Shown piece after piece: positions 6,543 to 29,112 of a stretch of 64,000 nucleotides of DNA. The notes beneath the pieces were generated by a model. It had not been told where the DNA came from, searched no databases, and worked only from the letters and a program-made list of their open reading frames with translations. The stretch is from a bacterium (GTDB lineage: Bacteria; Myxococcota_A; UBA9042): the NCBI GenBank assembly GCA_030425545.1, contig JAUIAC010000001.1:3132-67131 (forward strand), given 5' to 3'. Every line of letters starts with the position of its first letter. Within the stretch, counting starts at the first letter, position 1. The position numbers and the translations under genes were made by a program.

Positions 6543-9500
6543 TCAGCCCTTGGTTGCGCTGCCGTCGAGGCAGTAGCTGAGCTTGTCCATGGCGCCAGAG
6601 CCCTTCAGCGTCACGGTCAGCGACTTCACGCCCTGGGCGCTGCCGAGGCTGAGCGTGAACGCCGCGCCGTTGCCCTTGGCCGGGATCTGCACGGTGGACG
6701 TCTTGCCGTCGGTGTACGTGAGCACCACCGTGCCGCCGGTCTCTTCGATGTCGACGAAGCCGATGCTGTTGACCTTGCTGCCCTTGCTGAAGGTGAACGT
6801 GACCGCCCCGCCGCTGGCCTCGTCGTCCGGGTCGTCGACCAGGCCGTCCTTGGGCGCCGTGTCGTCGTCGTCCTCGGCGATGATGAGCACCTTGCCCCAG
6901 TCGGTCGTGGCCAGATCCGGGTCCCCGCCCGTGGGCTTGGCCGAGTCGAAGGTGATGGCCTTGTCCGGGTGGTTCGAGTTGGCGTTCTTGGCCGACACGG
7001 TGAGCCCCCAGCCGGCGAACTGGTCGGTGATGACCGTGCCCGCGGCGAGGGACTTGCCCTGGCTGTCCGCGTCGAAGTTCACGGTGCGGCAGAGGCCGCC
7101 GCAGTTCGGGATCTGGGTGAACTGGCAGCCGCTCTTGGCGTCGCACTTGTCCACCGTGCAGTCCTCGCCGTCGTCACACGTCTTGGTCTTGCCCGCCTGG
7201 CAGGTGCTGCCGCTGCACACATCGCTGACCGTGCAGGCGTTGCCGTCGGTGCACGCGACGCCGCTCATGGCCTTGTTCTCGCACTTGCTCGTGGACTTGT
7301 TGCAGCTGTCCGCGGTGCAGGCGTTGCCGTCGTTGCAGCTGCTGTCGCAGCCGCTGTCCGAGCCGCTGTCGCTGCTGTCGCTCCCGCCGCTGTCGCTGCC
7401 GTCGCTGCTGTCGCTGCCCCCGCTGTCGCTGCTGTCGCTGGCGTCCGAGCTGCTGGACCCGGAGCCCGACCCCGAGCCAGAGTCTGACTTGTCGCTGCCG
7501 GACTTGTCGCTGCCCGAGCCCGACTTGTCGCTGCCCGAGCCCGACTTGTCGCTGCCCGACTTGTCGCTGCCCGAGCCCGACTTGTCGCTGCCCGAGCCCG
7601 ACTTGTCGCTGCCCGAGCCCGACTTGTCGCTGCCCGAGCCCGACTTGTCGCTGCCCGAGCCCGACTTGTCGCTGCCCGACTTGTCGCTGCCCGAGCCCGA
7701 CTTCTCGCTGGTGCTGCTGCCCGAGCCCGAGTCGCTCTCGTCGTCCTCGCACTTGTTGGTGGCCAGCTTGGTGTGCTGGCAGCCGTACTTGGCGTCGCAG
7801 GTGTCCGCGGTGCAGGGGTTGCCGTCGTCGCAGTCCAGCGCCCCACCCTCGGTCTTGCAGCCGTAGTTCTTGGTGCCGCTGTTGTTGTAGTCGTCGCAGT
7901 CGTCCTTGAGGTTCAGCGCCTCGGTGCGGGCCTGGCCCTGCGGGTCGCTGCCGTAGCCGTGCTTGGTGAGCCAGGCGTCCGCGTCCTTGACCGACTCGGA
8001 GATGCCGTCGTCCTTGCTGCCCTTCAGCAGGTTCAGCTTGGTCGCACACAGCTGCGCGGCGAGGCTCTTGCTCGCGTCCTTGCTCGAGTGCGCCTTGATC
8101 AGCGCGATGGCCTGCGCCTTGGTGTAGGTCTTGGCGCCGAGCTTGATGCTCTCCACCGGCCAGTCGCTCGCGTGGTTCTTCCAGTAGCCGATGGTCTTGG
8201 GCGACGTGCACGAGGTCTTGCCGCCCTGCGCCTTGCACTCCCCGGCGGTGCAGACGTCCGAGCCGTTGCACACGTTGCCGTCGTCGCAGGTGCCGAGCTT
8301 GGCGGTGGTCACGCAGCCCTTGTCCTTGTCGCAGCTGTCCGTGGTGCAGAACTCGCCGTCGTCGCACTGGGTCGCGCCGCCCGCCTTGCACGTGCCCGAC
8401 TTGCACACGTCGCCCGTGGTGCACTTGTCGCCGTCTTCGCAGCTGGCGCCGCTGGCGGCCGCGTGCTTGCAGCCCTGGCTCTTGCTGCAGCTGTCGCTGG
8501 TGCAGGGGTTGTTGTCGTCGCAGCTCACCGCCTTGCCGCCACAGGTCCCCGCCGTGCAGGTGTCGGTGCCGCCCGCGCCGGTGCACGTGTCGCCGTCGTC
8601 GCAGCTGGTGCCGGTCAACGCCTTGTGGGTGCAGCCCGTCGCCTTGTCACAGCCGTCTGCTGTGCAGGGGTTGTCGTCGTCGCAGCTCACCGCCGCGCCG
8701 CCGCAGGTGCCCGCCGAGCAGGTGTCCTTGCCGCCCGCGCCGGTGCACGCGTCGCCGTCGTCGCAGCTGGTGCCGCTCAGCGCCTTGTGGGTGCAACCCT
8801 TGACCTTGTCGCAGCCGTCCGCCGTGCAGGGGTTGCCGTCGTCGCACCCCACGGCCTTGCCGCCGCAGGTGCCAGCCGAGCACACGTCGCTGCCGCCCGC
8901 CCCGGTGCACTTGTCGCCGTCGTCGCAGCTGGTGCCGCTCAGCGCCTTGTGCGTGCAGCCGGTCGCTTTGTCGCAGCCGTCCGCCGTGCAGGGGTTGCCG
9001 TCGTCACACCCCACGGCCTTGCCGCCGCAGGTGCCAGCCGAGCACACGTCGCTGCCGCCCGCCCCGGTGCACTTGTCGCCGTCGTCGCAGCTGGTGCCGC
9101 TCAGAGGCTTGTGCCCGCAGCCGGAGGCCTTGTCGCAGGTGTCGGCGGTGCACGAGTTGCCGTCGTCGCAGCTGTGCTTCTTGCCGGTGCAGCTGCCCTT
9201 GGCGCAGGTGTCACTCACGGTGCAGGCGTCGCCGTCGCTGCACTTGCCGCCCGACACCGGGGTGTTGACGCAGCCGCTCTTGGCGCTGCACGCGTCGGTG
9301 GTGCAGGCGTTGTCGTCGTCGCAGACCACAGCCGCGCCAGGCGTGCACGTCCCCGCCTTGCAGACGTCGCCTGCGTCGCCGCCGGTGCACTTGCTGCCGT
9401 CGTCGCAGGGCGTGCCGCTCAGCGCCTTGTGGGTGCAGCCGCTGGCCTTGTCGCAGCCGTCGCTGGTGCAGGGGTTGCCGTCGTCGCAGCTCACCGCCGC

Positions 9501-13574: not shown

Positions 13575-14213
13575 GGTGCCCCCCCTGGGGATTCGACCTC
13601 CGGACGGACCGGTGGCATGAGCGATGAATAGAGCATGCCAAATCTCGCAAGCAACGTAAAAGCCGAATATCAAACGACTTTGAGTTTCTCAGGGGCTCGG
13701 AGACCCCGGCGCACAAGATCCACAGAATCCGACTGAATTCCAATCTGTTACGCCGAAATTTCGCTGCACAACCATCGCCCACGCTCGGCGCCCCGAGAGC
13801 GCACGCTCTTCACACAGCGGCGACTGTTCATCTGGGCAAGGGTCCAACGAGAGCCCCTGGAATGTGCGGGGTTTGCGGCCGCCGCTGGGACACCTTTCGG
13901 TGTCTTGTCGGCCCGGGTGATTGCAAAGCCCACGAAATGAGGGCTGTCTGAACGAAACTCGTCATTTGTCTAGTAGACGCACGACCAGCTCTGTGATTGG
14001 AAGGCCGGTATTATCCCCAAGTGTGGGGTAGCCGTCAACAACTATCATGACGAGTTGACCGATAGCGCGACGCGACAGCCCTGATTCGGGGACTTCGAGC
14101 TCCACGCTCCAGATCTGAGCGCACGATCATGCGCTCACACATCTTCATATTCAGCCGTTTCGCTTTCCATCTAGTGCCTTATGACTCCGCAGAGCTTCAG
14201 CCCCCGCGCGGCG
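13575..14213. promoter_or_regulatory. 640-bp intergenic island of markedly lower GC between the two giant genes (presumed promoter/leader of the 6543..13574 gene)
   Basis: The stretch 13620-14160 is visibly AT-richer than the roughly 70% GC surroundings. It contains the near-DnaA-box-like TTATCCCCA and a short hairpin CCCCAagtgTGGGG. No convincing ORF. Confidence 0.4.
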
Positions 14214-17200
14214 TCACTTCACCCACACCTCAACCGCGCCGATGGGCCACGCGTACCAGATGGTGCTCGCCATGCCGGTCGACTGAACCGAGAGCGCCAC
14301 AGACGGCCCCGTGTGCGCCACCTGATAGTCGGCCAGCAACGCGTGCATGTTGCCGAGCGCCGGCGAGCAGGTGCCCGCCGCCTTGGGGTTGCTCGAGCCG
14401 GTGACCACCGGCAGGCCACCGAGGCCGCCGTTGAACATCAGCGTCCCGTTGAGGTGGATCTTCGCCGACGCCCAGTTCTTGTAGGTGCTGTTGGGTGTGG
14501 TGATGTGATAGCGAAAGCGCACGCGCACCGCGGTGTGCGCCTGCGGAACGTCCAGCGCGCCGTTGAGCGTGACGGTCTTGGTGCCGCTGCCGTACTTGAG
14601 GCTGATCGCAGGCGGGTTCCACATCTTGGCCTGGCCGAGACCGCCGCTGCAGCTCATCACACTGCCGGGTCCCCACGAGTTCGTCGCGCGCGTGACGCCG
14701 TTGGTGTACAGCCGCTTGAAGCCGCCCGCCTTCATGTCGCACCACTCGCGCTTCGGGTTCTTGCCGTCCTTGTCTTCGTCGAGCCAGGTCCACCCGACAA
14801 AGGTGTCGAGCTTGCCGCCGGCGGCGTCCTTGGCGGCGACGCACGACGACGCAGGCGACAGCGAGGTGCAGCCGACATAGGCCTTGCCGCCCACCTTGCA
14901 GGCGCCGCCGCCACAGATGCCGGGGCCGAGGGGGACGCAGACCTCGCCGTCCTTGCACACGGCGCCGTCGGCCAGCGCGGTGAACACGCAGCCTTTGACC
15001 TTGTTGCAGGTGTCGAGTGTGCACGGCTGGTGGTCGTTGCACGTGACCGACTTGTGCTTGCACCCCGCCGACTTGTCGCAGGTGTCGACCGTACAGGCGC
15101 TCTTGTCGTCGCAGTCCACCTTGGTGTGCTTGCAGCTGCTGTCAGCCTCGCAGGTGTCCGTGGTGCAGGCGCTGCCGTCGTTGCAGACGGGCTTGAGCGG
15201 GAAGGTGCAGCCTGCCTTCTCGCCGCCGCCCGCGGTGACGTTGCACAGGTTGTGGGTGCAGCTCCGTTTGTCGTCGCACACCACGGGCGCGTGGGTGCAG
15301 CCCTTGACCTTGTCGCAGGCGTCTGTGGTGCAGGCGTTGCCGTCGTCGCACGATCGCGCCGTGTGGGTGCAGCCGGCGCCCGGGGCGCAGCTGTCGGTGG
15401 TGCACGCGTTCTTGTCGTCGCAGTCGGAGGGGTCCACGCCCTTGCACAGCCCGGCCGCGGTGCAGGGGGCGAGCCCCCACGGCCCGGTGCGCGCGACGGT
15501 CGTCTTGCGCTTGCCGTCCTGCGCGATGGCCCAACCGCCGATGAGGACCCCGTCGTCGCCGGCGCCCAGCGCCCAGGTCGACGCGACGTTGCCCGCGTCG
15601 AGGTCGCGGGAGAGCAGCGGCTGCCCGCCGGGCTGCGTGAGGAAGAGGCGCACCTTGTGGTTGACGCCAGCCCCCCACTTCGCGACGAAGGCGAGCCCGT
15701 CTTGGGGGCCGGTGGCGGCGAGCACCGTGGCGCCGGCGTTGAGCTCGGCGGTGGTGACCACAGACTGCAAGGCGCCTGATTTTCCGGCGAAGCCGACCAC
15801 CACGAGGCGTCGCTTGGCCGTGGTCGACGTGGTCCAGCCCGCGGCGCGCACGTCGTTGCCCGAGTCGACCCGCGCGGCGCGCAGGGTGATGCCCGTGAGG
15901 CCGGGCGGCGACACGACCCACTGGGCGGTCCCGTCGGGCGCGAGCAGCGTCGCGAAGCCACGGCCCCCGCCGCTGCCTACGGCGACCCACCGGCCGTCCG
16001 ACGCGGCGGCCATGCGCGAGGGCCACGCGGCCGCGCCGCCCACGGCCGGAAAGTCCTTGCTGGCCACCACGGCGTAGCTGGTGTTGCGGCGGAAGAAGCG
16101 ATAGCGAATGGCGTAGCCCAACGAGCCGTCAGCGGCCTCGGCGATGGCCTGAATCCCGCCCTCGGTGCTGCCCACCTTCTGCTTCCAGTTCAGGGTCGAG
16201 AGCGCTGTGCCGTTGACGTCGGTGCGCACGATGAAGCTGGAGCGGCCGTAGCCGTTGGCCGAGGTCTGCTGCTGGTAGCCGGCCCAGATCTCGCCGTTCT
16301 TCCGCTCGAGCAGCCACTTGTTGGTGCCCTTGAACGAGTGCGGGTCGGGAGAGGTCAGCTTGCGCTGCCACACCAGGCTGCCGGTGTGGTCGAGACGACG
16401 CACCGTCGCCAGCGAGCCGTTGTAGGGGTACTTGGCGTACTGCGACGCCTGCTGGTGGCCAAAGACCACGGAGCCTCCGTCACTGGTGCCGCGGATGGCC
16501 CCGACGCCGGCGTGGACGCGCCACGCCTCGGTGCCCGTCTCCCACGGGTAGAGCCGAGACCAGAGCTCGCCGTTGGGGTCGGCCTTGCACTTGCCCGCCG
16601 CACACACGCCCTGCACCGCGCAGCCGTCTTTCGGGTCGCACACCAGGCCCTCGAGGGTGGTGTGCAGACACTTGCCCGACTTGGGATCGCAGCGGTCGAG
16701 GGTGCAGGGGTCGCTGTCGTCGCAGCCCGCAGCCGCGATGGTGGCGCAGGCCCCGGCCGACTCGCAGGTCTGCTGACCCCAGGGCGACATGCGGCTGACA
16801 AACGCCCGCTGCAGCGCGGCCGTGCGCGTGCCAGCGAGCAGCAGCCCGCCGTCCATGGCGTGAACGCCGCGGAGCACGACGCTGGGCTTGCTGCCAGCGC
16901 CGGCGCCGTCGATCTGGGTGAAGTTCTGCTGCCACACCGGGTTGCCGATCGGATCGGTGAGCATCGCCCACGCGTCGAGCCCCCCGCTGCCGTCGGGCGC
17001 GCTGCCCGACACCATCAGCTGACCCGAACCGTGCAGGTACATGCCGTGGATCGCCGCCGCGCCGGGCGAGACCCGCTGCCACAACACCTTGCCCTGCAGG
17101 TCGGTCCGCAGCAGCCAGTAGTGCGTGCCAGACCCGTCGGTCGTGTGTCCGGCCGCGGTCAGCCGCGCGCTGGGCTGAGCGACGACCGCTCGGAGCCGCG

Positions 17201-20200
17201 CGTCGGTGCTGGCCTTGTTCGGCGCCAGGTTCTTGCGCCAGAGCACGGCGCCGGTCGCGCCCACACGGGCCAGCAGCCCGCGGCGCACGTCGCCGGCCAT
17301 CTTGCCGCTCTGCCCCGCGACGACGGTCTGGTTGGCGCCGGTGTGGTCCACCGCGTCGGCGACGTCGCCGGCGAGGCCAGGCAGCAGCTTGGCAGCCGAG
17401 AGGTGCCCAGAGGACGACAGCCGCATCCACGGCACGCGCGTCACGCCCTGGTCCACCGCGCTGCCGACGACCACCGCCCCCTTGTCCGGCATCAGCGCCG
17501 ACGCGCGGCCCTCGACACCGCTCCACTTGCCGTGCTCGCGCAGGGCCACGCTCTTGCCCGCCTTGTCGAGGCGTACGAAGAGCACCGCAGGCTTCCCCGC
17601 CACCGTGGTGGTCCCCGTCGCCAGGGTCCCCCCAGCGTCGAGCGGATGCACGGTCCACACCCGCACCGCGTCCGAGGGCGTCGTCGCCTTGTGGCTGAAC
17701 GACCACAGCGGCTTGCCCGACTTCCCCAGGGCCTGAACCCACGCGTAGGCCGCGCTGACCGCGCCCTGGTTGAGCACGTGGCGCGCGCCGCCGACCACCG
17801 CGCTCCCCCCGCTGCCGTCGGCCGCGTTCAGCTCGTAGGCCTCGCCCGTCTTGCCCTGGCTCCAGGTCCAGAGCCGCTTGTCCTTGCCCGGCTGGCAGCT
17901 GCCGTCCTTGCACAGGCTACCGATCGTGCAGCTGGCGCCGTCGTCACACGGGGCACCGTCCACGTCCCCCACGACCAGGCACTTGTACGCCGTCTGCCCT
18001 TCGGACTTGCACACAGCCTTCTCGCAGTGCTTGGTCACGATGGTGCACTTGATCGTCGAGCCCACCTTGCACACGCCCTTGCTGCACGTGTCGTTGACGG
18101 TGCAGCCGTCGTTGTCGGCGTTGCAGGCGGTGCCGTCTCCGAGCACGGTCGCAAAGTCGCACTGCCCGGTCTTCGGGTGGCACTTGTCCACGGTGCAGGA
18201 GTTGCCGTCGGCGCAGTTCTGCTGCTTGTGCACACAGCCGAGCTTCTTGTCGCAGAGGTCGATGGTGCAGGCGTCATTGTCGGCGCAGTCCGCCTTCACC
18301 GGGCCCACGCACGCGCCGCTGTCGCAGCTGTCCTGAGCGGTGCACGGGTTGTCGTCGTCGCAGGCCTTGCCCTTGGTCACGGGCTGCAGGCCGCACTTGC
18401 CCGACTTGGCGTTGCAGGCGTTGACGAGGCACTGGGTGTTGGCCGTCTGCGGGCAGTGCACCTTCGAGCTCGGGTTGGGCTTGCAGGCGTACTTGCCCGG
18501 CACGCTCTTGTCGCAATAGGGCACGCCGTTGCACAGGTCGCCGTCGTCTTGCGCGAGGCAGTCGCTGTCGCTCTGGCAGGTGCAGGTGAAGGTGCCACCG
18601 ACGCACTTGCCGTTGCCGCAGGTGTCGTTCGCGGTGCACTTGTCCCCGTCGTCGCACAAGGTCTTGTCCGCGAGCTTGGCCAGGTAGCAGGCCCCGACCT
18701 TCTTGTCGCAGGTGTTCTTGATGCAGGCGCTGTCGCCCGCCGTCGGGCACACCACCACCGACGCCGGGTTCGGCTTGCACACGTGCTTGCCTGGGGTCGA
18801 GGTGTCGCAGTAGGGCACGCCGTTGCACTTGTCGCCGTCGTCTTTGCTCAGGCAGTCGCTGTCGCTCTGGCACTCGCACACGTTCGTGCCGCTGCACTCG
18901 CCGCCCTTGCAGACGTCGCTGCTGGTGCACGCGTCGCCGTCGTCACACCCGGTCTGCGTCGCGAGCTCGGCCAGGAAACACGCGCCCGTCTTGGGGTCGC
19001 AGGTGTTCTTGATGCAGGCGCTGTCGTCGCCCTTGGGACACACCACCACCGACGCCGGGTTGGGCTTGCACACGGGAAGCGCGCCCGACGTGTCGCAGTA
19101 GGGGACGCCGTTGCACTTGTTGCCGTCGACGTCGACGCAGTCCGAGTCGGTCTTGCACGCGCAGGTGTAGGTCCCCGAGACGCAAGATCCGGCAGCGCAG
19201 AAGTCGCTCTTGGTGCACACGCTCTTGTCGTCACAGGCGGCGCCCTCGTAGGTCGCCGTGTCCATCTTGCACTGACCGGTGGCCTTGACGCAGACGTTCT
19301 TGCGGCACGCGTTGTCGCCCGCTGACGGGCAGGTGACCACGGTGGCCGGGTTCAGCTCGCACTTGCCGAGCAGCTTGTTGCAGAAGAGCGTGCCGTTGCA
19401 CTGGTCGCCGTCCTCTTCGCCCGCGCAGTCCTTGTCCGACTTGCAGTAGCAGGTGTAGGTGCCCGCGGCGCACTTGCCGCCCTTGCAGAGATCCCCCTTG
19501 GTGCAGGGGTCGCCGTCGTCGCACGGGGTCAGCGACTTGTCGGTGACCGGCACCAGGGTGCACGCCGCCTCCTTGGGGACCTGCTTGCCCGCCTTGGTCT
19601 CGTACAGCGTCTTGCAGGTGTTCTGCGCGCAGGCGGTGTCATTGGTGTCTGGGCACACCTTCACCGTGGCGGGGTTGACCTGGCACAGGCCGTTGACCTT
19701 GTTGCAGAAGAGCGTGCCGTTGCAGAGGTCGCCGTCGCCGTTCTTGGCCTCGCACTCCGCGTCCGACTTGCACACGCAGGTGTTGGTGCCGGGGACGCAC
19801 TTGCCGATGAAGCAGGCGTCGCCCGTGGTGCACTTGTCGCCGTCGTCACAGGCCGTGCCACCGGCGGTGGGCACCAGCTCGCACTGGCCGGTCTTGGGCT
19901 GGCAGGCCGCCTTGGCGCAGGCCGTGTCGTTGCCGTCGGGACAGCTGACCACGGTGGCCGGGTTGACCTTGCACTTGGGCGCGACCTTGCCGTCGCCGCC
20001 CTTGTGCTGGGTGTCGCAGTAGAGCGTGCCGTTGCAGAGGTTGTCGTCGTCCACCAGCGCGCAGTCCGCGTCGCTCGCACAGGTGCACACGTTGACCTTG
20101 GCCTCGCACACGCCGCCCTTGCAGGCCTCGTTCTTGGTGCAGGCGTCACCGTCGTCGCAGGGGGTGGCGTCGGGCTGAGTCTGAGTCGCGCAGCTGCCCG

Positions 20201-20762
20201 TCTTGGGGTTGCAGGTCTCGCTGGCGCAGGGGCCACCCTCGCCCTTGCAGGTGACCACGGTCGCCGGGTTGACGCGGCACGACCACGGGAACTGATCCTT
20301 GTCGCAGAAGAGGGTGCCATTGCAGAGGTTGCCGTCCTCCTTGGCGGTGCAGTCGGCGCTGGTGACACAGCCGCAGAAGCTGAGCGATCCAGGCGTGCAG
20401 ACCCCCGCCTGGCAGGTGGCGGAGACCGTGCACGGGTCGCCGTCGTCGCACAGGGTGCCCTTGGGGCGCGGCGTGGTCTCGCACGTGCCCGTGGCCGCGA
20501 CGCAGCGCTCGTAGGTGCACGGCGTGTCCTTGCTCGGGTCACAGTCGCAGCTGGCCACGTCGAGCTTCGCGCTGCTGTCGGTCCCCCCTCCCGTGTCGAG
20601 CGGAGCGCCCGTGTCGAGGGCCGCGCCGGTGTCGGTGGCGCCGACGACGTCTCCGAGCGCGGCGTCCGCCCCGCCGGTCGGCGCCTCGTCTTCACATCCG
20701 GGCTGGGTCGCCAACATCACCAACAGCCCCCAAAACGGGGCCAACTGCCGTACGCGAGTCAT
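14214..20762 (-). CDS. giant (about 2180 aa) secreted (lipo)protein with two classes of Cys-rich repeats and two Trp-rich non-repeat domains
   Basis: Probable start ATG at 20762 gives MTRVRQLAPFWGLLVMLATQPGC... (signal peptide). There are about 9 copies of an approximately 80 aa unit (...C-x-SD-DC-x5-DGNLCNGTLYCD...C-x-NPATVV-CP...). Two approximately 400 aa W/G-rich non-repeat regions look beta-propeller-like. C-terminal CDDxNxCTxDxC repeats are of the same class as the neighbouring giant gene. A roughly 230 aa non-repeat domain sits at the C-terminus. Confidence 0.8.
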   Translation of the reverse strand: MTRVRQLAPFWGLLVMLATQPGCEDEAPTGGADAALGDVVGATDTGAALDTGAPLDTGGGTDSSAKLDVASCDCDPSKDTPCTYERCVAATGTCETTPRPKGTLCDDGDPCTVSATCQAGVCTPGSLSFCGCVTSADCTAKEDGNLCNGTLFCDKDQFPWSCRVNPATVVTCKGEGGPCASETCNPKTGSCATQTQPDATPCDDGDACTKNEACKGGVCEAKVNVCTCASDADCALVDDDNLCNGTLYCDTQHKGGDGKVAPKCKVNPATVVSCPDGNDTACAKAACQPKTGQCELVPTAGGTACDDGDKCTTGDACFIGKCVPGTNTCVCKSDAECEAKNGDGDLCNGTLFCNKVNGLCQVNPATVKVCPDTNDTACAQNTCKTLYETKAGKQVPKEAACTLVPVTDKSLTPCDDGDPCTKGDLCKGGKCAAGTYTCYCKSDKDCAGEEDGDQCNGTLFCNKLLGKCELNPATVVTCPSAGDNACRKNVCVKATGQCKMDTATYEGAACDDKSVCTKSDFCAAGSCVSGTYTCACKTDSDCVDVDGNKCNGVPYCDTSGALPVCKPNPASVVVCPKGDDSACIKNTCDPKTGACFLAELATQTGCDDGDACTSSDVCKGGECSGTNVCECQSDSDCLSKDDGDKCNGVPYCDTSTPGKHVCKPNPASVVVCPTAGDSACIKNTCDKKVGACYLAKLADKTLCDDGDKCTANDTCGNGKCVGGTFTCTCQSDSDCLAQDDGDLCNGVPYCDKSVPGKYACKPNPSSKVHCPQTANTQCLVNACNAKSGKCGLQPVTKGKACDDDNPCTAQDSCDSGACVGPVKADCADNDACTIDLCDKKLGCVHKQQNCADGNSCTVDKCHPKTGQCDFATVLGDGTACNADNDGCTVNDTCSKGVCKVGSTIKCTIVTKHCEKAVCKSEGQTAYKCLVVGDVDGAPCDDGASCTIGSLCKDGSCQPGKDKRLWTWSQGKTGEAYELNAADGSGGSAVVGGARHVLNQGAVSAAYAWVQALGKSGKPLWSFSHKATTPSDAVRVWTVHPLDAGGTLATGTTTVAGKPAVLFVRLDKAGKSVALREHGKWSGVEGRASALMPDKGAVVVGSAVDQGVTRVPWMRLSSSGHLSAAKLLPGLAGDVADAVDHTGANQTVVAGQSGKMAGDVRRGLLARVGATGAVLWRKNLAPNKASTDARLRAVVAQPSARLTAAGHTTDGSGTHYWLLRTDLQGKVLWQRVSPGAAAIHGMYLHGSGQLMVSGSAPDGSGGLDAWAMLTDPIGNPVWQQNFTQIDGAGAGSKPSVVLRGVHAMDGGLLLAGTRTAALQRAFVSRMSPWGQQTCESAGACATIAAAGCDDSDPCTLDRCDPKSGKCLHTTLEGLVCDPKDGCAVQGVCAAGKCKADPNGELWSRLYPWETGTEAWRVHAGVGAIRGTSDGGSVVFGHQQASQYAKYPYNGSLATVRRLDHTGSLVWQRKLTSPDPHSFKGTNKWLLERKNGEIWAGYQQQTSANGYGRSSFIVRTDVNGTALSTLNWKQKVGSTEGGIQAIAEAADGSLGYAIRYRFFRRNTSYAVVASKDFPAVGGAAAWPSRMAAASDGRWVAVGSGGGRGFATLLAPDGTAQWVVSPPGLTGITLRAARVDSGNDVRAAGWTTSTTAKRRLVVVGFAGKSGALQSVVTTAELNAGATVLAATGPQDGLAFVAKWGAGVNHKVRLFLTQPGGQPLLSRDLDAGNVASTWALGAGDDGVLIGGWAIAQDGKRKTTVARTGPWGLAPCTAAGLCKGVDPSDCDDKNACTTDSCAPGAGCTHTARSCDDGNACTTDACDKVKGCTHAPVVCDDKRSCTHNLCNVTAGGGEKAGCTFPLKPVCNDGSACTTDTCEADSSCKHTKVDCDDKSACTVDTCDKSAGCKHKSVTCNDHQPCTLDTCNKVKGCVFTALADGAVCKDGEVCVPLGPGICGGGACKVGGKAYVGCTSLSPASSCVAAKDAAGGKLDTFVGWTWLDEDKDGKNPKREWCDMKAGGFKRLYTNGVTRATNSWGPGSVMSCSGGLGQAKMWNPPAISLKYGSGTKTVTLNGALDVPQAHTAVRVRFRYHITTPNSTYKNWASAKIHLNGTLMFNGGLGGLPVVTGSSNPKAAGTCSPALGNMHALLADYQVAHTGPSVALSVQSTGMASTIWYAWPIGAVEVWVK

Positions 20763-20931
20763 CGGGTTCTCCAGCGCGAGTGAGGGGTGCCAAACGGTAC
20801 AACATCCTGGCGCGCCGCGAACGATCTGAAGCGCAGCGAGGCCCATTCCACCCGCCGAACAAACTCTCCCCACGACCCCGCCCGGTGGGTTAGGCTGCGG
20901 CGCAGCCCAGCTCGATCCAGGAGACACACGC

Positions 20932-22749
20932 ATGCCATCGACCATCGTTCGACTCCGTGACGCCCTCCGCTCTCGCCCCCGTCATCTACCGATCCTCGTC
21001 GCGTCGCTCGTCGTGCTGGCGACCGCTGGCGCCTGCGGCACGGACGCCGACAGCGGCAGCGGAGCCGACGCGGCCACGGAGAGCGACGCCGCGACGGCCG
21101 GCGCCGACACCGTGATCGCGGGAGAGGACGCGACCTCAAAAGGCGAGGGCACGCCGACCTGGCACGCGACCATCGCGCCGATCATCCAGAGCCGCTGCAG
21201 TTCCTGCCACGTCGAGGGCGGCATCGCCCCCTTCCGCCTCGACCGGGCCGAAGACTGGGAGATCATGGGCAAGCCCGCGGTGTCGGCGATGGAGTCCGGC
21301 CGCATGCCGCCGTGGCCCGCAGACCCGACCTGCGGCTCGTTCGCGCATCGCGGCGACATGCCCAAGGCCGAGATTGCGCAGGTCTCGGCCTGGGTCAACG
21401 GAGGTCGGCCCCTCGGTGATCCGAAGGACGCGCCCAAGCCCAAGGCGACCGCGCCGGTGACCTTCAAGCCCACACACTCGCTGCCCATGCCGGTCGCCTT
21501 CACGCCACCCAAAGACAACCTGGACACGTACCGGTGCTTTCTGCTCGACCTCGACACGTCGAAGGACCGCTTCATCAAGGCGACGCAGGTGGTCCCGGGG
21601 AGCGGCAAGCTGGTGCACCACGTGCTCGTGTACGCCCTGGAGGGAGACCACGTGACCAAGGCCGAGAAGGCCGACAAGGCGGAAGCCGGGCCGGGCTACA
21701 CCTGCTTCGGTGGACCGCTGCCAAACGAGAAGGAGAGCAGCCTGCTCGGGTTCACCACCGGCTTCCCGAACCAGCTCGCCGCGTGGGTGCCCGGGCTGCA
21801 GCCGTCGATCTTGGGCGACGACTACGCCATTCGGGTGAAGAAGGGCAGCCGGGTCGTCATGCAGGTGCACTACAACGTCCCGGCGGGGCAGACCGAAGCC
21901 GACCAGACCAAGCTCGAGCTGGTCGTGACCGACACGCCGCCCAAGCGGGTGCTGATCACGCGGCCGCTGGTGATCCGAGACCTCAACATCCCCGCTGGCG
22001 ACAAGGCCGCGTCGCACAGCGCGACCTACCGCTACTACGGGGACAGCGAGGTGCGCATCCACTCCATGACCGCCCACATGCACCTGCTCGGCTCACGCTT
22101 CGAGTCCGAGGTGCGGCGCAAAGACGGGACCACGGAGTGCGCCCTGCGGATCCCGGAGTGGGACTTCGCCTGGCAGCAGGCCTACCGCCGACCGCACGAC
22201 GATCCGATCGTGTTGAAAGACGGCGACGGCATGATGCTGCGGTGTGTCTACGACAACTCCGTCGCCAACCAGCCGCGGGTGAACGGCAAGCAGGTGACAC
22301 CCAAGAACGTGACCTGGGGCGACGGCACGCTGGACGAGATGTGCCTGCTCTACCTGACCATGAGCGAGCCCTACGAGGTGGGTCTGGCGGCCGACGCGCC
22401 CGCGTGTCAGGGCATCAGCGCGTGTCAGCCTGCGTGCGATCCCAAGAGCCCGACCACCTGCATCTACGACTGCGACAAGACCGAGCCCGTGTGTGGCACG
22501 TGCGCCATTGGTCAGCTGATCTCGTGCGCCGGGCTGGGCTGCGCGGCGTCGATGCTGGGCGCGCAGGACTGCCTGACCAACTGCCTGATCGGCTCGCTGA
22601 TGCTCGACGCCAACCCCGCGTCGTGCTTGACCACGCAGTGCAAGAGCAAGTGGGAGAAGGTGCAGGCCTGCCTCGACCCCAAGATCGCCAAGGGCGACTG
22701 CGACAAGCACCTCAAGACCTGTGGCGTGGCTTTTGGCGCGGGAAAGTAG
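20932..22749 (+). CDS. lipoprotein with N-terminal Planctomycete-type cytochrome c (PSCyt1-like, CxxCH) domain fused to a copper type II ascorbate-dependent monooxygenase-like (PHM/DBH-like) domain and a Cys-rich C-terminal tail
   Basis: Signal peptide with ...LVVLATAGAC G. The segment IAPIIQSRCSSCHVEGGIAPFRLD carries a CxxCH heme motif in a PSCyt1-like context. Cu-site-like motifs are present: VHHVLVY (HH), AHMHLLG (HxH) and GTLDEMCLLY (DEMC Met ligand). The C-terminal approximately 120 aa has about 16 Cys. Confidence 0.65.
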   Translation: MPSTIVRLRDALRSRPRHLPILVASLVVLATAGACGTDADSGSGADAATESDAATAGADTVIAGEDATSKGEGTPTWHATIAPIIQSRCSSCHVEGGIAPFRLDRAEDWEIMGKPAVSAMESGRMPPWPADPTCGSFAHRGDMPKAEIAQVSAWVNGGRPLGDPKDAPKPKATAPVTFKPTHSLPMPVAFTPPKDNLDTYRCFLLDLDTSKDRFIKATQVVPGSGKLVHHVLVYALEGDHVTKAEKADKAEAGPGYTCFGGPLPNEKESSLLGFTTGFPNQLAAWVPGLQPSILGDDYAIRVKKGSRVVMQVHYNVPAGQTEADQTKLELVVTDTPPKRVLITRPLVIRDLNIPAGDKAASHSATYRYYGDSEVRIHSMTAHMHLLGSRFESEVRRKDGTTECALRIPEWDFAWQQAYRRPHDDPIVLKDGDGMMLRCVYDNSVANQPRVNGKQVTPKNVTWGDGTLDEMCLLYLTMSEPYEVGLAADAPACQGISACQPACDPKSPTTCIYDCDKTEPVCGTCAIGQLISCAGLGCAASMLGAQDCLTNCLIGSLMLDANPASCLTTQCKSKWEKVQACLDPKIAKGDCDKHLKTCGVAFGAGK

Positions 22750-22773: not shown

Positions 22774-24636
22774 TTGAACCTGTCGACGGCGCTCGGCGCC
22801 GCGGCGTCCGTGACGCTGGTGTTGGCGGCGTTCGCCCTGTGGGGCCCGGACCCGCACGCGGTCGCGGACGCCGCCCTGGCCCGGGCAACCGCCAAGGTCG
22901 CGCAGCCCGTGCAAGACCCGGACGGGGTGTGTCCGGTGACCGCAGCGGCGCACACAGGCGGGACCGGCGGGACGCTGGTGTGTCGGCGCGACGCTGCGGC
23001 CGGTCGGCTGACGCTCGTCGCGGCGCGCGCGCCGCAGGCCGGCATGGCCGGTCGCCTCGACGCTGCGCGGGGAGGCGGGGACACGATCTCCACGCCGGCG
23101 CACAGCGTGCCGCTGCCGGGCCCGTCTTCGCTGGTCGGCCCGCTGGCGGCGGTCGCCCTCGTGCTGGCCCTCCGACGCGCGGCCTTGGGCCTCTTCCTCG
23201 CCGTCATCGCGGGCGCCATCGCCGCCATGGGACCTGTGGCCGGGCTCCGCGCCGCCGCGGTCGACGTGTTCTGGCCGACGCTGACGAACACCGACAACCT
23301 GCTGATCCTGGCCTTCACGGCGACGATGCTCGGCATGGTGCACGTGGCCATGGCCGCGGGCGGCTTCACCGACCTCGCGCGCCGCGTCGCTGCCGGCGCG
23401 GGGGCCCATGCCGAGGGCGCGCGCCGACGGACGCGCATGGCCACGTGGCTGCTGGGCCTGGTGGTCTTCTTCGACGACTACGCCAACTCCCTGGTGGTGG
23501 GTAGCAGCCTGCGGCCACTGGCGGACCGCACCGGCGTGAGCCGGGCCAAGCTCGCCTACCTGGTCGACGCGACCTCGGCGGCCGTCGCCGGCGTGGCCAT
23601 CGTCTCCACCTGGGTGGGTTTCGAGGTCGGCCTGCTCCAAGACCAGATCGCCAGGTTCGACGGCATCGCCACGGCGGGATACGGCGTCTTCATGGCCGCC
23701 CTGCCCTACCGGTTCTACTGCGTGCTCACCATCGTCTTCGCCGGCCTCATCGCCTGGACAGGCCGCGACTTCGGGCCCATGGCCAAGGCCGAGGCGCAGG
23801 CGCGCGCCGCGACCCCGACCGCCGACGCCGCGCCGGGTCGCGCGCACTGGGGCGACGCGCTGCTGCCCGTGTTGGTGGTGGTCGCCACGGTCGTCGGCGC
23901 AGACCTGGCGCTCGGCTGGAGCGCAGGGGGCGGGCTGCTGACGCGCTTCATCGCAGGCGCCGAGTCCGCCGGGCTGAAGGTGCTCGCCGCCGCCGGCGCG
24001 GCCGGGTCACTGGCCGCTGTGGTGGGCGCCGTGGCGCGTCGGCTGCTCTCCCCCGCGCAGGCGCTCTCGGCCTGGGCCGCTGGCGTCCGCGCCATGGCGC
24101 CTGTGTTGGCGATCCTGGTGTCCGCCATGGCGATGCGCGTCGTGTGCGAGCTCGCGGGGACCCCAGGCTACCTCGCCGCGCTGCTCGGCGGCGTCCACGA
24201 CGCGTGGGTCCCCGTGCTGAGCTTCTTCGTCGCGGCGGTCGTCGCGTCCATGACCGGCTCGAGCTGGGCGACCATGGGCATCTTGCTGCCCATCGTCGTG
24301 CCCCTGGCCGCTCGCGCCCCGGGTCCCGAGGGCATCTGGCTGCTGGCGGCGACGGCGGCGGTGCTCGACGGCGCGATCTTTGGTGACCACTGCTCGCCGA
24401 TCAGCGACACGACGGTGATGAGCTCGGCCGCGTCGGGCTGTCCCCACGACCAGCACGTGCTCACGCAGCTGCCCTACGCCCTGACCGTGATGGTGGCGGC
24501 CGCGGGCTTCGGCTACCTCGGGAGCGCCTGGCTCGAGATCCAGCCCTGGTGGGTCCTGCCACCCGCCGCGCTGGCGCTGGCGCTCTTCCTTCGCCTGGTG
24601 GGGACGCGCGCGCCGAGCCCGACGACCGGGAGCTGA
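22774..24636 (+). CDS. NhaC-family Na+/H+ antiporter-like membrane protein
   Basis: 620 aa with a TTG start in the track. The polytopic region ...FFDDYANSLVVGSSLRPLADRTGVSRAKLAYLVDATSAAVAG... resembles the Na_H_antiporter (NhaC/MleN) C-terminal domain. The start may be downstream of 22774. Confidence 0.55.
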   Translation: MNLSTALGAAASVTLVLAAFALWGPDPHAVADAALARATAKVAQPVQDPDGVCPVTAAAHTGGTGGTLVCRRDAAAGRLTLVAARAPQAGMAGRLDAARGGGDTISTPAHSVPLPGPSSLVGPLAAVALVLALRRAALGLFLAVIAGAIAAMGPVAGLRAAAVDVFWPTLTNTDNLLILAFTATMLGMVHVAMAAGGFTDLARRVAAGAGAHAEGARRRTRMATWLLGLVVFFDDYANSLVVGSSLRPLADRTGVSRAKLAYLVDATSAAVAGVAIVSTWVGFEVGLLQDQIARFDGIATAGYGVFMAALPYRFYCVLTIVFAGLIAWTGRDFGPMAKAEAQARAATPTADAAPGRAHWGDALLPVLVVVATVVGADLALGWSAGGGLLTRFIAGAESAGLKVLAAAGAAGSLAAVVGAVARRLLSPAQALSAWAAGVRAMAPVLAILVSAMAMRVVCELAGTPGYLAALLGGVHDAWVPVLSFFVAAVVASMTGSSWATMGILLPIVVPLAARAPGPEGIWLLAATAAVLDGAIFGDHCSPISDTTVMSSAASGCPHDQHVLTQLPYALTVMVAAAGFGYLGSAWLEIQPWWVLPPAALALALFLRLVGTRAPSPTTGS

Positions 24637-24710: not shown

Positions 24711-25556
24711 CTACCTGGTCGGCGCCGGCCGCGGCGGGGCAGCCGGCGGGGTCGGCTTGGTGCGGACGGGGGGCGCCGCGTTGGCGGGCGCGGCCTTCTT
24801 GGGCTGGAAGCGAGCTGGGATGGTGCCGCCCTGCTCGGGGTTGTAGCGCTTGTGGAACGCGCTGTAGCGGCCCTTGGTCTTCTTCAGCTGGCGTCGCAGC
24901 CCCTGCAGCGTGTGCAGCGGGATCTTGCGCGACGCCGCCTTGACCAACCAGGCCGGTAGCCAGCCGCCCGGGTCGCTGTAGACCTGATAGGTCGTCCGAA
25001 TCTGCCCTGGCTTGAGCAGCTCGAACTTGAAGAAGCCGCGCATCTTGGTCATGCGCACGACGCCGCTCTTCGGCGGGACATGCCCGCGCACGGCGCGAAA
25101 GGGGCTGCGGACGATCTTGCGCACCGGGTCCACGGTCACCGAGCCCTTGAACACCATGTCGCGGTCGCTCACGGGCCAGGGAGAGTCCAGTCGGTGGTAC
25201 ATGAGCCGGTCGAACTCGTTGTACTTCTTGATGATGCGCATGACCTTGCAGCTCGCCTGCCACTCGCAGTGACGGGGCGCGTCGTCGAGGATGGCGAGCA
25301 GGTCGAAGATGCCGCAGTTCAGTACGGTCACGCCGCGAAACTCCGGAAAGTCCTGACCCGGGATGTCACGAGCGGAGACACGGACCCCGTCCTCGGTGAA
25401 CACGTGGCGCCACGCCGGACGGGGCGCGGCCTGGGCAGAGGTGGCCACAAGGGAGAGCAGGGACAGCCACAGGAGTCCCCGCCGGCAGGCTGCGCCGCTC
25501 GGGAGCAGCGGGCTCCGGGCCTCCACCTGGCGTGGAGCGAAGGTTCGACGGCACAT
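24711..25556 (-). CDS. secreted START/SRPBCC (lipid-binding) domain protein with Pro-rich C-terminal tail
   Basis: The N-terminal signal peptide (...LLSLVATSAQA) is followed by ...FDRLMYHRLDSPWPVSDRDMVFKGSVTVD...WLVKAASRK..., which looks like a START-domain beta-grip. Assignment by eye only. Confidence 0.5.
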   Translation of the reverse strand: MCRRTFAPRQVEARSPLLPSGAACRRGLLWLSLLSLVATSAQAAPRPAWRHVFTEDGVRVSARDIPGQDFPEFRGVTVLNCGIFDLLAILDDAPRHCEWQASCKVMRIIKKYNEFDRLMYHRLDSPWPVSDRDMVFKGSVTVDPVRKIVRSPFRAVRGHVPPKSGVVRMTKMRGFFKFELLKPGQIRTTYQVYSDPGGWLPAWLVKAASRKIPLHTLQGLRRQLKKTKGRYSAFHKRYNPEQGGTIPARFQPKKAAPANAAPPVRTKPTPPAAPPRPAPTR

Positions 25557-25752
25557 GGCGAGCTCCTGGGTGCGCGGGTCGAGCGACGCTGTAGCACATC
25601 CACGGCGGGGGATGCGGTGGGTGGCGGAGAATCACGACCTCGCCGGCGCGCTTTCAGTTGGCGGACACACGCTGCTATGCTGCCGCGTCCCGACTCCCCC
25701 ACAACGCCGCGGCCCCCCTCCACCGAACCCGGCGAGAGCAACGCAGACCTAC

Positions 25753-28700
25753 ATGGCTCGACGTCCCCCACGCTCCTCCAGTCCCAGCGGCGTTCACCCG
25801 CCCGCCGTCCCAGGGTCCGCGGCCCCGGGCGGCCCCGCCGGGGGCGCCACCGCGCCGGCCGGGTCGGACGACGCCGTCCTGGAAGACCGACGCGAGCAGT
25901 ACCGACGCGCCAGCGGGTCGTTCCGCTCACGCGACTTCCGCAAGCCGCAGCTCGCCGCGGGGCTCGACGACCCGATGGCCGACCAGGACCGCCGCCGGTC
26001 GTCGGCGCAGCGGCCTGCCGTGCTCCTGGATCCCACAGAGCTCTACGAGGCGTCGCGGAGCGGCGTCGTCACAGGAGGCGCCGCCAGCGCCGGGGGCGCG
26101 GCCCGCGCGCCGACCGCAGCGCCGCCGCCGCGGGTCGTGCAGGGCGGCTCCCAGCCCGCTCGGCGCGCTGGCGCGCAGGGCCCAAGCGGCCGTGGTCGTG
26201 CGGGCGCCGCCCGCGACGGCGCCGACGCTCCGGCAGCTCCCAGCGCCGAAGGGGCTCAGCACGACGGCGGCGCGGCGCGGCGCGACGCAAGCGCCCGCGG
26301 TCTGCGTCCGGCGGGGCCGGTGCCGTGGGCGGCCCTCGCCCTCATCGCCGCACTGGCGCTCGGCGCGACCCTACTGCTGCCGCTGGTGGCCGAGGGGCCG
26401 ATGCTGTGGAAGCTCCTCGGCGAGCCGACGCTGGCGCCGTGGCCGCTAGGCGGGCGGATCACCGCCGGGGTCGTGGTCCTGGCCCTCGTCGCGCTCGTCG
26501 TCAGCGCGAGCCAGGGCGCCCTGCGCGCCGGGCTGGGCGAGTCCGCCCTGCCCAACGCCGCGCTGATGGGGTCCGGCCTGCTGGCGGCGGGCCACCTCGT
26601 GTTCCGAGCGGCCGCCGCTCCAGGGGGCCTCAACGCGCCGCTGGCCCCGCTCCGAGGGGACCTGGGCGGCGTGCCCGACGCGGTCTGGCTCGGTCTCGCA
26701 GCCGGTGGCCTCCTGGCGGTGACCGAGCGGCAGTCGCAGCGCATGGCGCGCACGGTCGCGCTCATCGGCGGGCTCGGCCTCGCGCTGGCGTGGTGGACGC
26801 CGCTGGGGTTCGCCGGGCAGTCCTTCGTACCGCTGCTCACGGCGCTCTCCGGTACCGCGGCGCCGGCCGAGGGCGCCCTCCAGCTGGCGGCGTGGGTCGA
26901 CGCGCCGGGCGCCGTGATCCTCGGATCCTTTACGCCCCTGCTCGTGTTGGTCCCACTCCTGTGGCCGCGGGCCCTGCCGCCGCTCGTCATGCGTGGCCTC
27001 GCCGCGGCATGTGTCGCGGTGGTCCCCGCTGTGGCGGCGCTGTCCTCAGGCGACGGCACGCTGGTCGTGGCCGGCGGCGCGCTCGCGACCGGCGCCACCG
27101 CGCTGCTGGTCGCCGCCTCGGTCGGGCTCACCCTCGACCGGCTCACGACACGCTGGGACGACGAAGCGCTGATGACGCTGGAGATCCTCGCGGTGGTGCT
27201 GGTGGTGGGCGTCTGGACCATCGCCAAGATCAACGGCATGCGCTACTCGGCCACCGACGAGGGCGTGTACTTCTACGCCGCCAAGGCGTGGGCCTCGGGG
27301 CTGTGGCCTTATCACGACTTCTTCTTCAGCCATCCTCCGCTCCACATCCTGATCCCGGCCGTGTTCTTCGCGATCTTCGGCTTCTCCGTCACCGTGGCGA
27401 AGTCGATCTCGGTGGCCGCGGCGGGCATCGCTGGGCTCTTCATCTGGCGAACGGGACGGCGCTGGTTCGACCCGCTCACCGGCGTGGTCGCCATGACCCT
27501 CTTCCTCTTCGCCGGCGAGGTGATGAAGTCCAGCACCAACCTCACCGGGATCAACCTCACGACCATGTGGGCCTGCGCTGGGCTCTGGGCCGCGCTGCGT
27601 CGCAAGAGCTTCCTGGCGGGCGCGCTGCTCGGCGCCGCCGCCTGCACCGGCTTCTACAGCGTCGGCTACTTCCTCACGCTGACCGTGCTCGCCCTGCTCG
27701 CGCCCGACCTCGACCCGGACAAGAACCGGCCGATGGTCGACCGCGTGTTGGGGCAACCAGGGGTCCAGCTCCTGCTCGGGTTCGCGGTGGTGTTCGGCGC
27801 GGTGAACCTGGTCTTCTTCCTGCTCGCCGGCGAGGACTACCTCACCGGGGTCTACCGCTACCACTTCCTCAAGCGGGCCAAGCTGGCCGGCTTCACCCCG
27901 CTCGACGAGGGGCTGCACGCCCTGCCGCAGAACCTGGCGCTCATGCTCGGTGGCCGGGACTTTCGGGTGTCGCTCTACTACCACGGCGCCCACTACGTGC
28001 TGGCCTTCCTCGCGCCGCTCTCGCTGGTGGCCACCGTCGCCATTCGCCGGCACGCGCAGAAGGCCACGCCGCACCTGTTTCACGCCCCCAAGGGGCTCCC
28101 GCCCCACCTGGCCGACAAGGGCCGCTGGGCGATGCTGTGGGACCCACGGCTCTGGTGGACGCACCCGAAGTCCGGAGGGGCCCTCGCCCTCGTGACCGTG
28201 CTGCTGTGGGCGATGCTGACGGAGTTCGCTCAGTTCAAGGAGCGCTACGACTTCTACTACACGCTGGTGTTGCCGCTGCTGAGCCTGCTCGCAGCGGCGT
28301 GGCTCCACGGTCTGGTGCGGCTGGGCCGCTGGGCCGCTGGGTGCGGCGCCCGGTGGCGTCGGCCTGCCGAGGGACCCGAGGCCCGCGGGCTCTTCCAGCC
28401 CGCGCCCAAGGCCGCGGCGCCCATCTTTGCGGCGGCGCTGGCGCTGACCCTGCTGTGGGTGCCGGTGAACATCTGGGCGAACGCCACGGCGTGGCCGAGC
28501 GAGGTCACGCCGCGGGGAAGCTCCAAGGGTCGGGGCGAGGTGTTGAAGTTCGACTGGATCGACGCGCCCGGCCCGAGCTTCGTCAGCGAGACCACGCGCG
28601 CCCTGCTCTGGAAGGGGCACCGCGTGCGCGGCAGCCTGGAGTCGGGGCTCCACCACTACCTGTGGAGCAAGAAGCGCTGGTTCTCCACCGCCGAGCCCAT

Positions 28701-29112
28701 CGCCGCGTACATCCGGGAGCACAGCAAGTCTGAGGAGACCGTCACCGGCTCCAGCACGCACGCCCCCATGGTGGCGCTGCTGGCCAAGCGACGCATGGCC
28801 GGCGACCACGTGGACACCAACTCGAAGACCTTCAAGACCGGCGTGGTGTCGCGCAAGGCGTTCTGGACCAAGGCGTGCAAGGACAACGTGCGCTTCATCG
28901 TCGCTGGGCCGCGCTCCTACTTCTCCCCCGCGTCCATGCCGCGCCGGCCGACGGTGGTGCGCCACTTCCGGCTGGTGAAGGAGTTCCGTGACCCTGCGCT
29001 GAAGCACTGGCGCTCGGTGACCTTGCAGCTGTGGGAGCGCAAGCACAGCCCCGACAAGCACCGCTGCACCTACGAGGGTCCGCAGCGCGGGGTGCGGGTG
29101 CGGCGCAAGTGA
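25753..29112 (+). CDS. GT-C fold glycosyltransferase, family 39/83-like (PMT/ArnT-like), with long Pro/Arg/Ala-rich N-terminal extension
   Basis: The first in-frame ATG after the upstream gene is at 25753. Polytopic membrane region with ...YSATDEGVYFYAAKAWASGLWPYHDFFFSHPPLH... (DE motif in the first extracytoplasmic loop, typical of GT39/GT83). The large C-terminal soluble domain is W-rich. The true start could be further downstream (the N-terminal 180 aa are low complexity). Confidence 0.55.
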   Translation: MARRPPRSSSPSGVHPPAVPGSAAPGGPAGGATAPAGSDDAVLEDRREQYRRASGSFRSRDFRKPQLAAGLDDPMADQDRRRSSAQRPAVLLDPTELYEASRSGVVTGGAASAGGAARAPTAAPPPRVVQGGSQPARRAGAQGPSGRGRAGAARDGADAPAAPSAEGAQHDGGAARRDASARGLRPAGPVPWAALALIAALALGATLLLPLVAEGPMLWKLLGEPTLAPWPLGGRITAGVVVLALVALVVSASQGALRAGLGESALPNAALMGSGLLAAGHLVFRAAAAPGGLNAPLAPLRGDLGGVPDAVWLGLAAGGLLAVTERQSQRMARTVALIGGLGLALAWWTPLGFAGQSFVPLLTALSGTAAPAEGALQLAAWVDAPGAVILGSFTPLLVLVPLLWPRALPPLVMRGLAAACVAVVPAVAALSSGDGTLVVAGGALATGATALLVAASVGLTLDRLTTRWDDEALMTLEILAVVLVVGVWTIAKINGMRYSATDEGVYFYAAKAWASGLWPYHDFFFSHPPLHILIPAVFFAIFGFSVTVAKSISVAAAGIAGLFIWRTGRRWFDPLTGVVAMTLFLFAGEVMKSSTNLTGINLTTMWACAGLWAALRRKSFLAGALLGAAACTGFYSVGYFLTLTVLALLAPDLDPDKNRPMVDRVLGQPGVQLLLGFAVVFGAVNLVFFLLAGEDYLTGVYRYHFLKRAKLAGFTPLDEGLHALPQNLALMLGGRDFRVSLYYHGAHYVLAFLAPLSLVATVAIRRHAQKATPHLFHAPKGLPPHLADKGRWAMLWDPRLWWTHPKSGGALALVTVLLWAMLTEFAQFKERYDFYYTLVLPLLSLLAAAWLHGLVRLGRWAAGCGARWRRPAEGPEARGLFQPAPKAAAPIFAAALALTLLWVPVNIWANATAWPSEVTPRGSSKGRGEVLKFDWIDAPGPSFVSETTRALLWKGHRVRGSLESGLHHYLWSKKRWFSTAEPIAAYIREHSKSEETVTGSSTHAPMVALLAKRRMAGDHVDTNSKTFKTGVVSRKAFWTKACKDNVRFIVAGPRSYFSPASMPRRPTVVRHFRLVKEFRDPALKHWRSVTLQLWERKHSPDKHRCTYEGPQRGVRVRRK

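Follow-up and report, generated by a model that had tools for sequence, protein, structure and literature searches.

A bacterial lipoprotein joining a cytochrome c module to a PHM-like two-copper core

Does a bacterial relative of the copper monooxygenases PHM and DBH carry its own haem electron donor? The question is raised by one gene in a 64,000-nucleotide stretch of DNA (hereafter the window; positions 3,132 to 67,131 of the forward strand of contig JAUIAC010000001.1, assembly GCA_030425545.1, lineage Myxococcota_A), which has a G+C content of about 70%. A program-made list of open reading frames (ORFs) gives a 605-aa ORF with an ATG start spanning exactly 20932-22749 (+) of the window, stop codon included, and this list together with the homologs identifies it as a cytochrome c/PHM-like copper monooxygenase lipoprotein. 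The ribosome-binding site AGGAGA (20919-20924, +), read directly from the sequence, lies 8 nt upstream of the ATG, while a sequence scan around the gene found neither a sigma-70-like promoter nor a terminator. A database search returned one identical protein (P0001, 100%) and more than 1,500 homologs, the nearest named relatives being from Myxococcales and metagenome-assembled genomes (MAGs) of Myxococcota; no NCBIfam model covers it. An earlier reading made from the letters alone (the sequence-only reading) had proposed a lipoprotein in which a c-type cytochrome module is fused to a two-copper core of the PHM/DBH type, and this proposal is supported: the signal peptide, an invariant lipobox cysteine and the domains are all in place. 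Our analysis places the protein in the PHM/DBH superfamily, as a lipoprotein in which a PHM-like core is joined to a cytochrome c. This architecture is well supported; electron donation by the haem and the nature of the substrate are inferred.

The two-copper core and its ligands

The core was compared with known structures by way of alignment A1, which contains 42 diverse family sequences and is the basis of both a family profile and an AlphaFold2 model. A single-sequence phmmer search of the PDB gave no match and the family profile was required; with the A1 profile, rat PHM was found at E=7e-12 and human DBH at E=1e-3. In the profile alignment all six metal ligands fall residue for residue in the register of rat PHM, which was the check that the sequence-only reading had called for. 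At the CuH site, H229 and H230 of VHHVLVY (21616-21621, +) are equivalent to H107 and H108 of VHHMLLF in PHM, and H313 of MQVHYN (the QVHYN motif; 21868-21870, +) is equivalent to H172 of LQVHYG. At the CuM site, H382 and H384 of HMHLLG (22075-22083, +) correspond to H242 and H244 of HTHHLG, and M470 of DEMC (22339-22341, +) corresponds to M314 of the same motif in PHM. A residue count in the 1opm chain (index + 44) confirmed the PHM numbers. Every motif string named beforehand was found in the sequence, namely CSSCH at 21196-21210, HH at 21616-21621, HMH at 22075-22083 and DEMC at 22333-22344. The copper ligand set drawn from them was right as far as it went, comprising the HH pair, the HxH pair and the DEMC methionine; the third CuH ligand, H313, had gone unmentioned.

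These ligands lie in two consecutive domains. The PHM N-terminal-type beta-sandwich, or CuH domain (aa 181-335; 21472-21936, +), matches Pfam PF01082 (Cu2_monooxygen), and the PHM C-terminal-type beta-sandwich, or CuM domain (aa 336-480; 21937-22371, +), matches PF03712 (Cu2_monoox_C) at E=9e-8, its 32.1 bits being above the cutoff of 23. Both assignments also draw on the PHM register and on ligand invariance, and that of the CuH domain on Foldseek as well. Across 42 diverse relatives, Pfam recognised the C-terminal half in 42 of 42 and the N-terminal half in 33 (E<=0.1). Neither the two Pfam matches of this protein nor the profile match to PHM can be put down to chance. The AlphaFold2 model built on A1 has a predicted local distance difference test score (pLDDT) of 85.6 and a predicted template modelling score of 0.81. 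When this model was searched against the PDB with Foldseek, the best 31 matches were all PHM or DBH structures, with E from 2e-16 to 2e-12. For PHM the template modelling score on the target was 0.62-0.71, and DBH gave E=6e-15.

Conservation was measured in two sets. Set 1 consists of 209 family sequences (126 database proteins plus the ORFs of 83 genomic loci) aligned to the family hidden Markov model (HMM), and set 2 of 139 representatives at 50% identity, obtained independently when the HMM was searched exhaustively. In set 1 the four haem ligands C89, C92, H93 and M125 and the six copper ligands are invariant in 205-207 sequences. They are also essentially invariant in set 2, where the copper ligands were scored in 137-139 sequences and the haem ligands are kept in at least 130 of 131.

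Beyond the ligands, several further positions of PHM are shared. Q311 (equivalent to PHM Q170) is invariant in set 1 and present in 133/139 sequences of set 2, E469 (PHM E313) is invariant in A1, Y474 (PHM Y318) is retained, and C438-C471 is the equivalent of the PHM C293-C315 disulfide. The position of PHM R240 is a threonine in this protein and T, A, S or G across the family, and that of N316 is a leucine here and L, M or I elsewhere. Because these two carboxylate anchors are replaced, the substrate would be other than that of PHM and would not be a glycine-extended peptide. Two enzyme classes were considered and rejected. An assignment as PHM proper, acting on a peptidyl-glycine substrate (EC 1.14.17.3), fails on R240 and N316, Y318 alone being kept. 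A DBH/MOXD-type enzyme (EC 1.14.17.1-like) was set aside on the N-terminal region, which has no DOMON match (Pfam, E<=1) and is helical with a CxxCH.

The cytochrome module, a paired cysteine and the terminal regions

Upstream of the core lies a domain of aa 72-160 (21145-21411, +), delimited from Pfam scans of the isolated domain, its match to the structure 4rlr and the AlphaFold2 model, which places helices at residues 77-88, 106-122 and 145-156. By its sequence features the module is classified as a monohaem cytochrome c, class I or cbb3-like. The CxxCH motif (C89, C92, H93; 21196-21210, +) and the axial methionine M125 in MPPW (21304-21306, +) provide the haem ligands, and all four are invariant in 205/205 sequences of set 1. 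Persistence of the CxxCH, on which the sequence-only reading had made its case depend, extends to more than 330 relatives.

The family to which this cytochrome belongs had been given as PSCyt1, and here the earlier label did not survive. The sole cytochrome match in a whole-protein Pfam scan was Cytochrome_CBB3 (E=0.07). When the isolated domains of 28 relatives were scanned with Pfam (PF13442 counted at E<=10), Cytochrome_CBB3 (PF13442) was found in 28/28 (best E=4.4e-7), PccH in 19/28, Cytochrom_C (PF00034) in 15/28 and Haem_bd in 12/28. PSCyt1 (PF07635) has no match on the whole protein or on its isolated domain, and was weakly found in only 2/28 relatives (best E=0.0097). Its usual partner domains (PSD1, PSCyt2, DUF1549/DUF1553) are also missing from the Pfam scan of the protein, and its likeness to the module is confined to a short helix and a CxxCH theme at the level of the Pfam clan. 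A profile of the cytochrome domain found the monohaem cytochrome c 4rlr as its best PDB match. With 4RLR (Pfam PccH) and the CcoP-type domains (PF13442) the module shares a helix, the pattern T-[YW]-x-x-D-[IV]-x-P-I-x-x-x-x-C-x-x-C-H and a distal methionine in MPxx, a likeness that is limited (profile E=8e-4, scores below the Pfam cutoffs); those domains stand alone or are oxidase subunits.

A pair of cysteines outside the metal sites connects this module to the core. C134 (21331-21333, +) lies in the cytochrome domain nine residues past the haem methionine, and C403 (22138-22140, +) lies in the sandwich of the CuM domain. Among 339 sequences of sets 1 and 2, both are present in 312, both are absent in 27, and no sequence has one without the other. 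On a neighbour-joining tree this distribution requires about three independent joint changes. Since the two residues are always present or absent together, an interdomain disulfide is implied, and there is good evidence from this covariation that a C134-C403 bond would fix the cytochrome against the catalytic core. The sequence-only reading was silent on this pair, as it was on M125, on H313 and on the Cys-rich domain described next.

The C-terminal domain (aa 484-605; 22381-22746, +) is all-helical, about 120 aa long and contains 16 cysteines; conservation is complete or at least 90% at 15 of these positions. It matched nothing in Pfam and no PDB sequence; modelled alone, it reached a pLDDT of 91.2. 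The cysteines probably form eight disulfides, and their location and CX3C/CX9C-like spacings suggest helical hairpins stapled by disulfides. About 70% of the family has this domain, with about five gains or losses on the tree, and the short forms that lack it include proteins of the cultured Sorangium cellulosum So ce56, Paraliomyxa miuraensis and Meiothermus hypogaeus. One further short form, encoded by ORF 7938-9476 of locus L078 (a MAG labelled Chitinophaga pinensis), lacks C134/C403 and has a C-terminal extension of about 100 aa that is absent from the other short forms shown.

At the N-terminus, a signal peptide with lipobox (20932-21036, +) consists of a basic n-region and a hydrophobic stretch followed by LATAGA-C35-G. 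C35, which comes directly after the hydrophobic segment, is invariant in 42/42 relatives of A1, and position -1 is always A or G. This pattern predicts signal peptide cleavage and lipidation at C35. The residues that follow (aa 36-71; 21037-21144, +) form a low-complexity tether rich in D, A, T, G and S. It is predicted to be disordered (AlphaFold2 pLDDT <50 for residues 14-71), and its length and sequence differ among the relatives in A1.

Proposed electron entry and chemistry

The nearest characterised proteins are the animal enzymes. The rat PHM catalytic core (1PHM, 1OPM, 1SDW) has the same two beta-sandwiches, the CuH and CuM ligands, the equivalents of Q170, E313 and Y318, and the C293-C315 disulfide, at about 20% identity. 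The bacterial protein differs in having neither the R240/N316 anchors nor the PAL partner domain, in its N-terminal cytochrome c and C-terminal Cys-rich helical domain, in being a bacterial lipoprotein and in its reductant, presumably haem. Human DBH (4ZEL), tyramine beta-monooxygenase and MOXD1 likewise share the core fold and ligand sets, and as in DBH there are extra N- and C-terminal domains around the core. However, the N-terminal domain of DBH is a DOMON beta-sandwich, whereas here it is a cytochrome c, and the C-terminal domains are unrelated. Animal PHM and DBH use ascorbate that is regenerated through cytochrome b561; ascorbate is not known to serve bacteria as a reductant in the periplasm. 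Cytochrome c domains tethered to copper enzymes do feed them electrons, as in the cytochrome-fused copper nitrite reductases. The three-domain copper nitrite reductase of Ralstonia pickettii, in which a class I cytochrome c domain is fused to a copper enzyme as the periplasmic donor, follows the same design logic, although its fold is a cupredoxin trimer, its metals are type 1 and type 2 copper and its chemistry is that of a reductase.

The explanation we favour, and consider moderately likely as a whole, is that a built-in haem donor feeds a two-copper hydroxylase. The protein would be an extracytoplasmic lipoprotein that comprises a flexible tether, a class I cytochrome c with His93/Met125 ligation, the two-copper core and a disulfide-stapled helical C-terminal domain. 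Haem would be loaded by the cytochrome c maturation system. The core would act as a non-coupled two-copper monooxygenase of the PHM/DBH type, with H229, H230 and H313 at CuH and H382, H384 and M470 at CuM. With the C134-C403 disulfide holding the cytochrome on the CuM sandwich, the haem would become a fixed point of electron entry. Periplasmic respiratory carriers would supply the electrons, in place of the ascorbate of the animal enzymes, and the haem would pass them singly to the copper sites. CuM would activate O2 for the hydroxylation of a C-H bond in a substrate other than a peptidylglycine.

Several observations weigh against this explanation. The hydroxylase chemistry would be extrapolated from the metal sites only, the predicted substrate pocket being unlike that of PHM. 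The disulfide would tie the cytochrome to the CuM domain and not to CuH, so the classical entry of electrons through CuH is not certain. Two of the Pfam assignments fall short of the curated cutoffs for this protein: PF01082 (E=2e-5) scores 25.2 bits, below its cutoff of 30, and the cytochrome families score 13.9-19 bits, below a cutoff of 27. The AlphaFold2 model contains no cofactors. Finally, within 5 kb of family members at 84 loci there are no conserved partner genes, substrate-related genes or copper chaperones.

In a different proposal, the protein would be an electron sink or a detoxifying oxidoreductase that draws electrons from respiration to reduce O2, H2O2, superoxide, nitrite or NO and hydroxylates no organic substrate. 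A gene that usually stands alone, with no conserved substrate-related neighbour, would fit such a function. The missing PHM substrate anchors would fit it too, and the combination of a His3 copper site with a tethered cytochrome c recalls the cytochrome-fused copper nitrite reductases. We nevertheless regard this proposal as unlikely. The complete His2Met site at CuM and the equivalents of Q170, E313 and Y318 are kept as in true monooxygenases, the two-sandwich PHM fold is retained with its interdomain cleft, and the extra C-terminal domain, itself conserved, suggests that the protein recognises a particular partner. Characterised PHM, moreover, is reported to couple the reduction of O2 tightly to the hydroxylation of its substrate (PMC9064607), which also argues against a simple sink.

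Alternatively, the cytochrome could have a sensory or structural role, and the copper sites would then receive their electrons from a small-molecule reductant or from a separate protein. The connection of the cytochrome to the CuM domain instead of CuH would be compatible with this, as would the atypical nature of the monohaem cytochrome 4rlr, the solved structure most closely related to it. Such a role is quite improbable given the conservation: the CxxCH and the methionine are absolutely conserved together with the copper ligands in hundreds of sequences, and none of the full-length matches among the best 150 of 3,866 strong clusters, from the profile search described below, lacks the cytochrome domain. 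Class I cytochromes with His/Met hexacoordination are typically electron carriers.

Returning to the built-in haem donor, a broader version of it can be stated. The family would then represent widespread ascorbate-independent monooxygenases of the PHM type, in which a covalently fused, disulfide-locked cytochrome c connects the two-copper site directly to the respiratory chain, the substrate belongs to a new extracytoplasmic class other than the peptidylglycines and the 16-Cys domain aids its recognition. This is a tentative picture, plausible and a little short of probable. PHM and DBH are medically important, and how electrons are delivered to and across their two distant copper sites is still debated. 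If the explanation is correct, the bacterial protein would offer a spectroscopically convenient electron donor built in at a fixed geometry, and hence a tractable model for the long-range CuH-to-CuM electron transfer of PHM and DBH. It would also shift the range and origin of PHM/DBH chemistry into bacteria, including the cultured S. cellulosum So ce56, P. miuraensis and M. hypogaeus, and would add an extracytoplasmic hydroxylation reaction to soil and marine Myxococcota. An ascorbate-free route to PHM-like biocatalysts may follow.

The family and its genomic neighbourhoods

An exhaustive profile search, clustered at 50% identity, gave 22,279 clusters at E<=1e-3, 11,870 at E<=1e-10 and 3,866 at E<=1e-30. 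At least 588 species-representative genomes encode a relative (588 of the 600 pattern matches listed). Among the matches listed most are Myxococcota, with Deinococcota (Meiothermus), Methylomirabilota, Acidobacteriota, Planctomycetota and others also represented. The architecture had been called unusual; with thousands of 50%-identity clusters it is instead very common. The database names of the relatives are generic ('hypothetical protein', 'monooxygenase', 'mono/diheme cytochrome c family protein'). A full-text literature search, with most subscription journals outside its coverage, found no study of a bacterial cytochrome-fused PHM-like enzyme, and in its table of cuproproteins a 2020 review has PHM and DBM confined to eukaryotes (PMC7435645). 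The view that bacterial PHM-like proteins are essentially uncharacterised is in keeping with both of these results, and the family is very large and apparently uncharacterised. Five of the database proteins are longer, P0213 (1251 aa), P0228 (1064 aa) and P0225/P0229/P0247 (about 835 aa). In these, CxxCH occurs twice and the family model matches two to four stretches; they are tandem or extended architectures of the haem-copper module.

Downstream of the monooxygenase gene, about 25 nt past its stop codon, an NhaC-type Na+/H+ antiporter-family membrane protein is encoded at 22774-24636 (+; Pfam PF03553, E=7.5e-43). Because the gap between the two is so short and contains no terminator-like site, the NhaC gene is probably co-transcribed with the monooxygenase gene; the adjacency is found only at loci L001 and L002. 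Upstream and divergent is a giant secreted Dicty_CTDC Cys-repeat protein of about 2182 aa (14214-20762, -; Pfam PF00526, E=8.5e-24, 7 repeat matches). It is followed by a second, tandem giant secreted Dicty_CTDC protein of 2376 aa (6543-13673, -; 22 Pfam repeat matches) and an OPT oligopeptide transporter (4467-6383, -). The mechanical ORF of the first giant starts at ATG 20945 and would overlap the monooxygenase gene, while ATG 20762 gives a signal peptide and a GGAGA ribosome-binding site. With the latter start the divergent intergenic region is 169 bp, in agreement with the earlier estimate of about 170 bp.

The gene order in a close relative, L001 (64-68% identical), is LGT, M18 peptidase, YaaD, monooxygenase, NhaC, START. 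In the window, some 16 kb with the OPT transporter and the two Dicty_CTDC giants occupy the place of YaaD. As L001 keeps the synteny with YaaD in place of the 16 kb, the pairing of giant and monooxygenase is a lineage-specific juxtaposition. The START neighbour, like NhaC, is syntenic in the closest relative only. A gene for a PMT_2 (dolichyl-phosphate-mannose-type glycosyltransferase) membrane protein of 1249 aa (25363-29112, +), 62% identical in the syntenic close relative, is also syntenic there with the monooxygenase, NhaC and START block.

When the ORFs within 5 kb at the 84 loci were clustered all against all, no neighbour was conserved family-wide, the largest flanking clusters being generic kinase and regulator families. 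In three further divergent lineages (L004/5, L010, L036) the family gene does have Cys-repeat giants beside it, often on either side, a recurrence that could be due to chance. A functional link to the giant Cys-repeat gene, which the sequence-only reading had suggested, is not borne out by these data, since the giant is absent from the syntenic relative and no neighbour is conserved across the family. The related idea that the enzyme oxidises the neighbouring Dicty_CTDC giants post-translationally draws on the divergent arrangement 169 bp apart, on the export of both products and on the giants beside family members 36-47% identical to the query at L004/5, L010 and L036, but we think it very doubtful, because the 64-68%-identical relative keeps LGT, M18, monooxygenase, NhaC and START with no giant gene, and Cys-repeat neighbours occur at only about 5-8% of 83 loci and at none of the cultured-organism members.

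L004 and L005 lie on two contigs of one MAG. The family gene and its 2555-aa Cys-repeat neighbour are identical at the two loci, reflecting either a large duplication or assembly redundancy. A secreted protein of about 400 aa adjoins the family gene at eight loci, downstream at L011, L012, L014, L015, L017 and L018 and upstream at L032 and L072. Pfam does not recognise this protein and the window encodes no homolog of it; at its C-terminus a Gly/Cys-rich tail precedes a hydrophobic segment and then basic residues, an arrangement that resembles a myxobacterial sorting signal. Elsewhere in the window, two ORFs that have no Pfam match (38055-39095 and 39014-40549) flank a tRNA-Sec gene with anticodon TCA (40505-40601, -; Rfam RF01852, 76.9 bits), which implies selenoprotein synthesis in the source organism.

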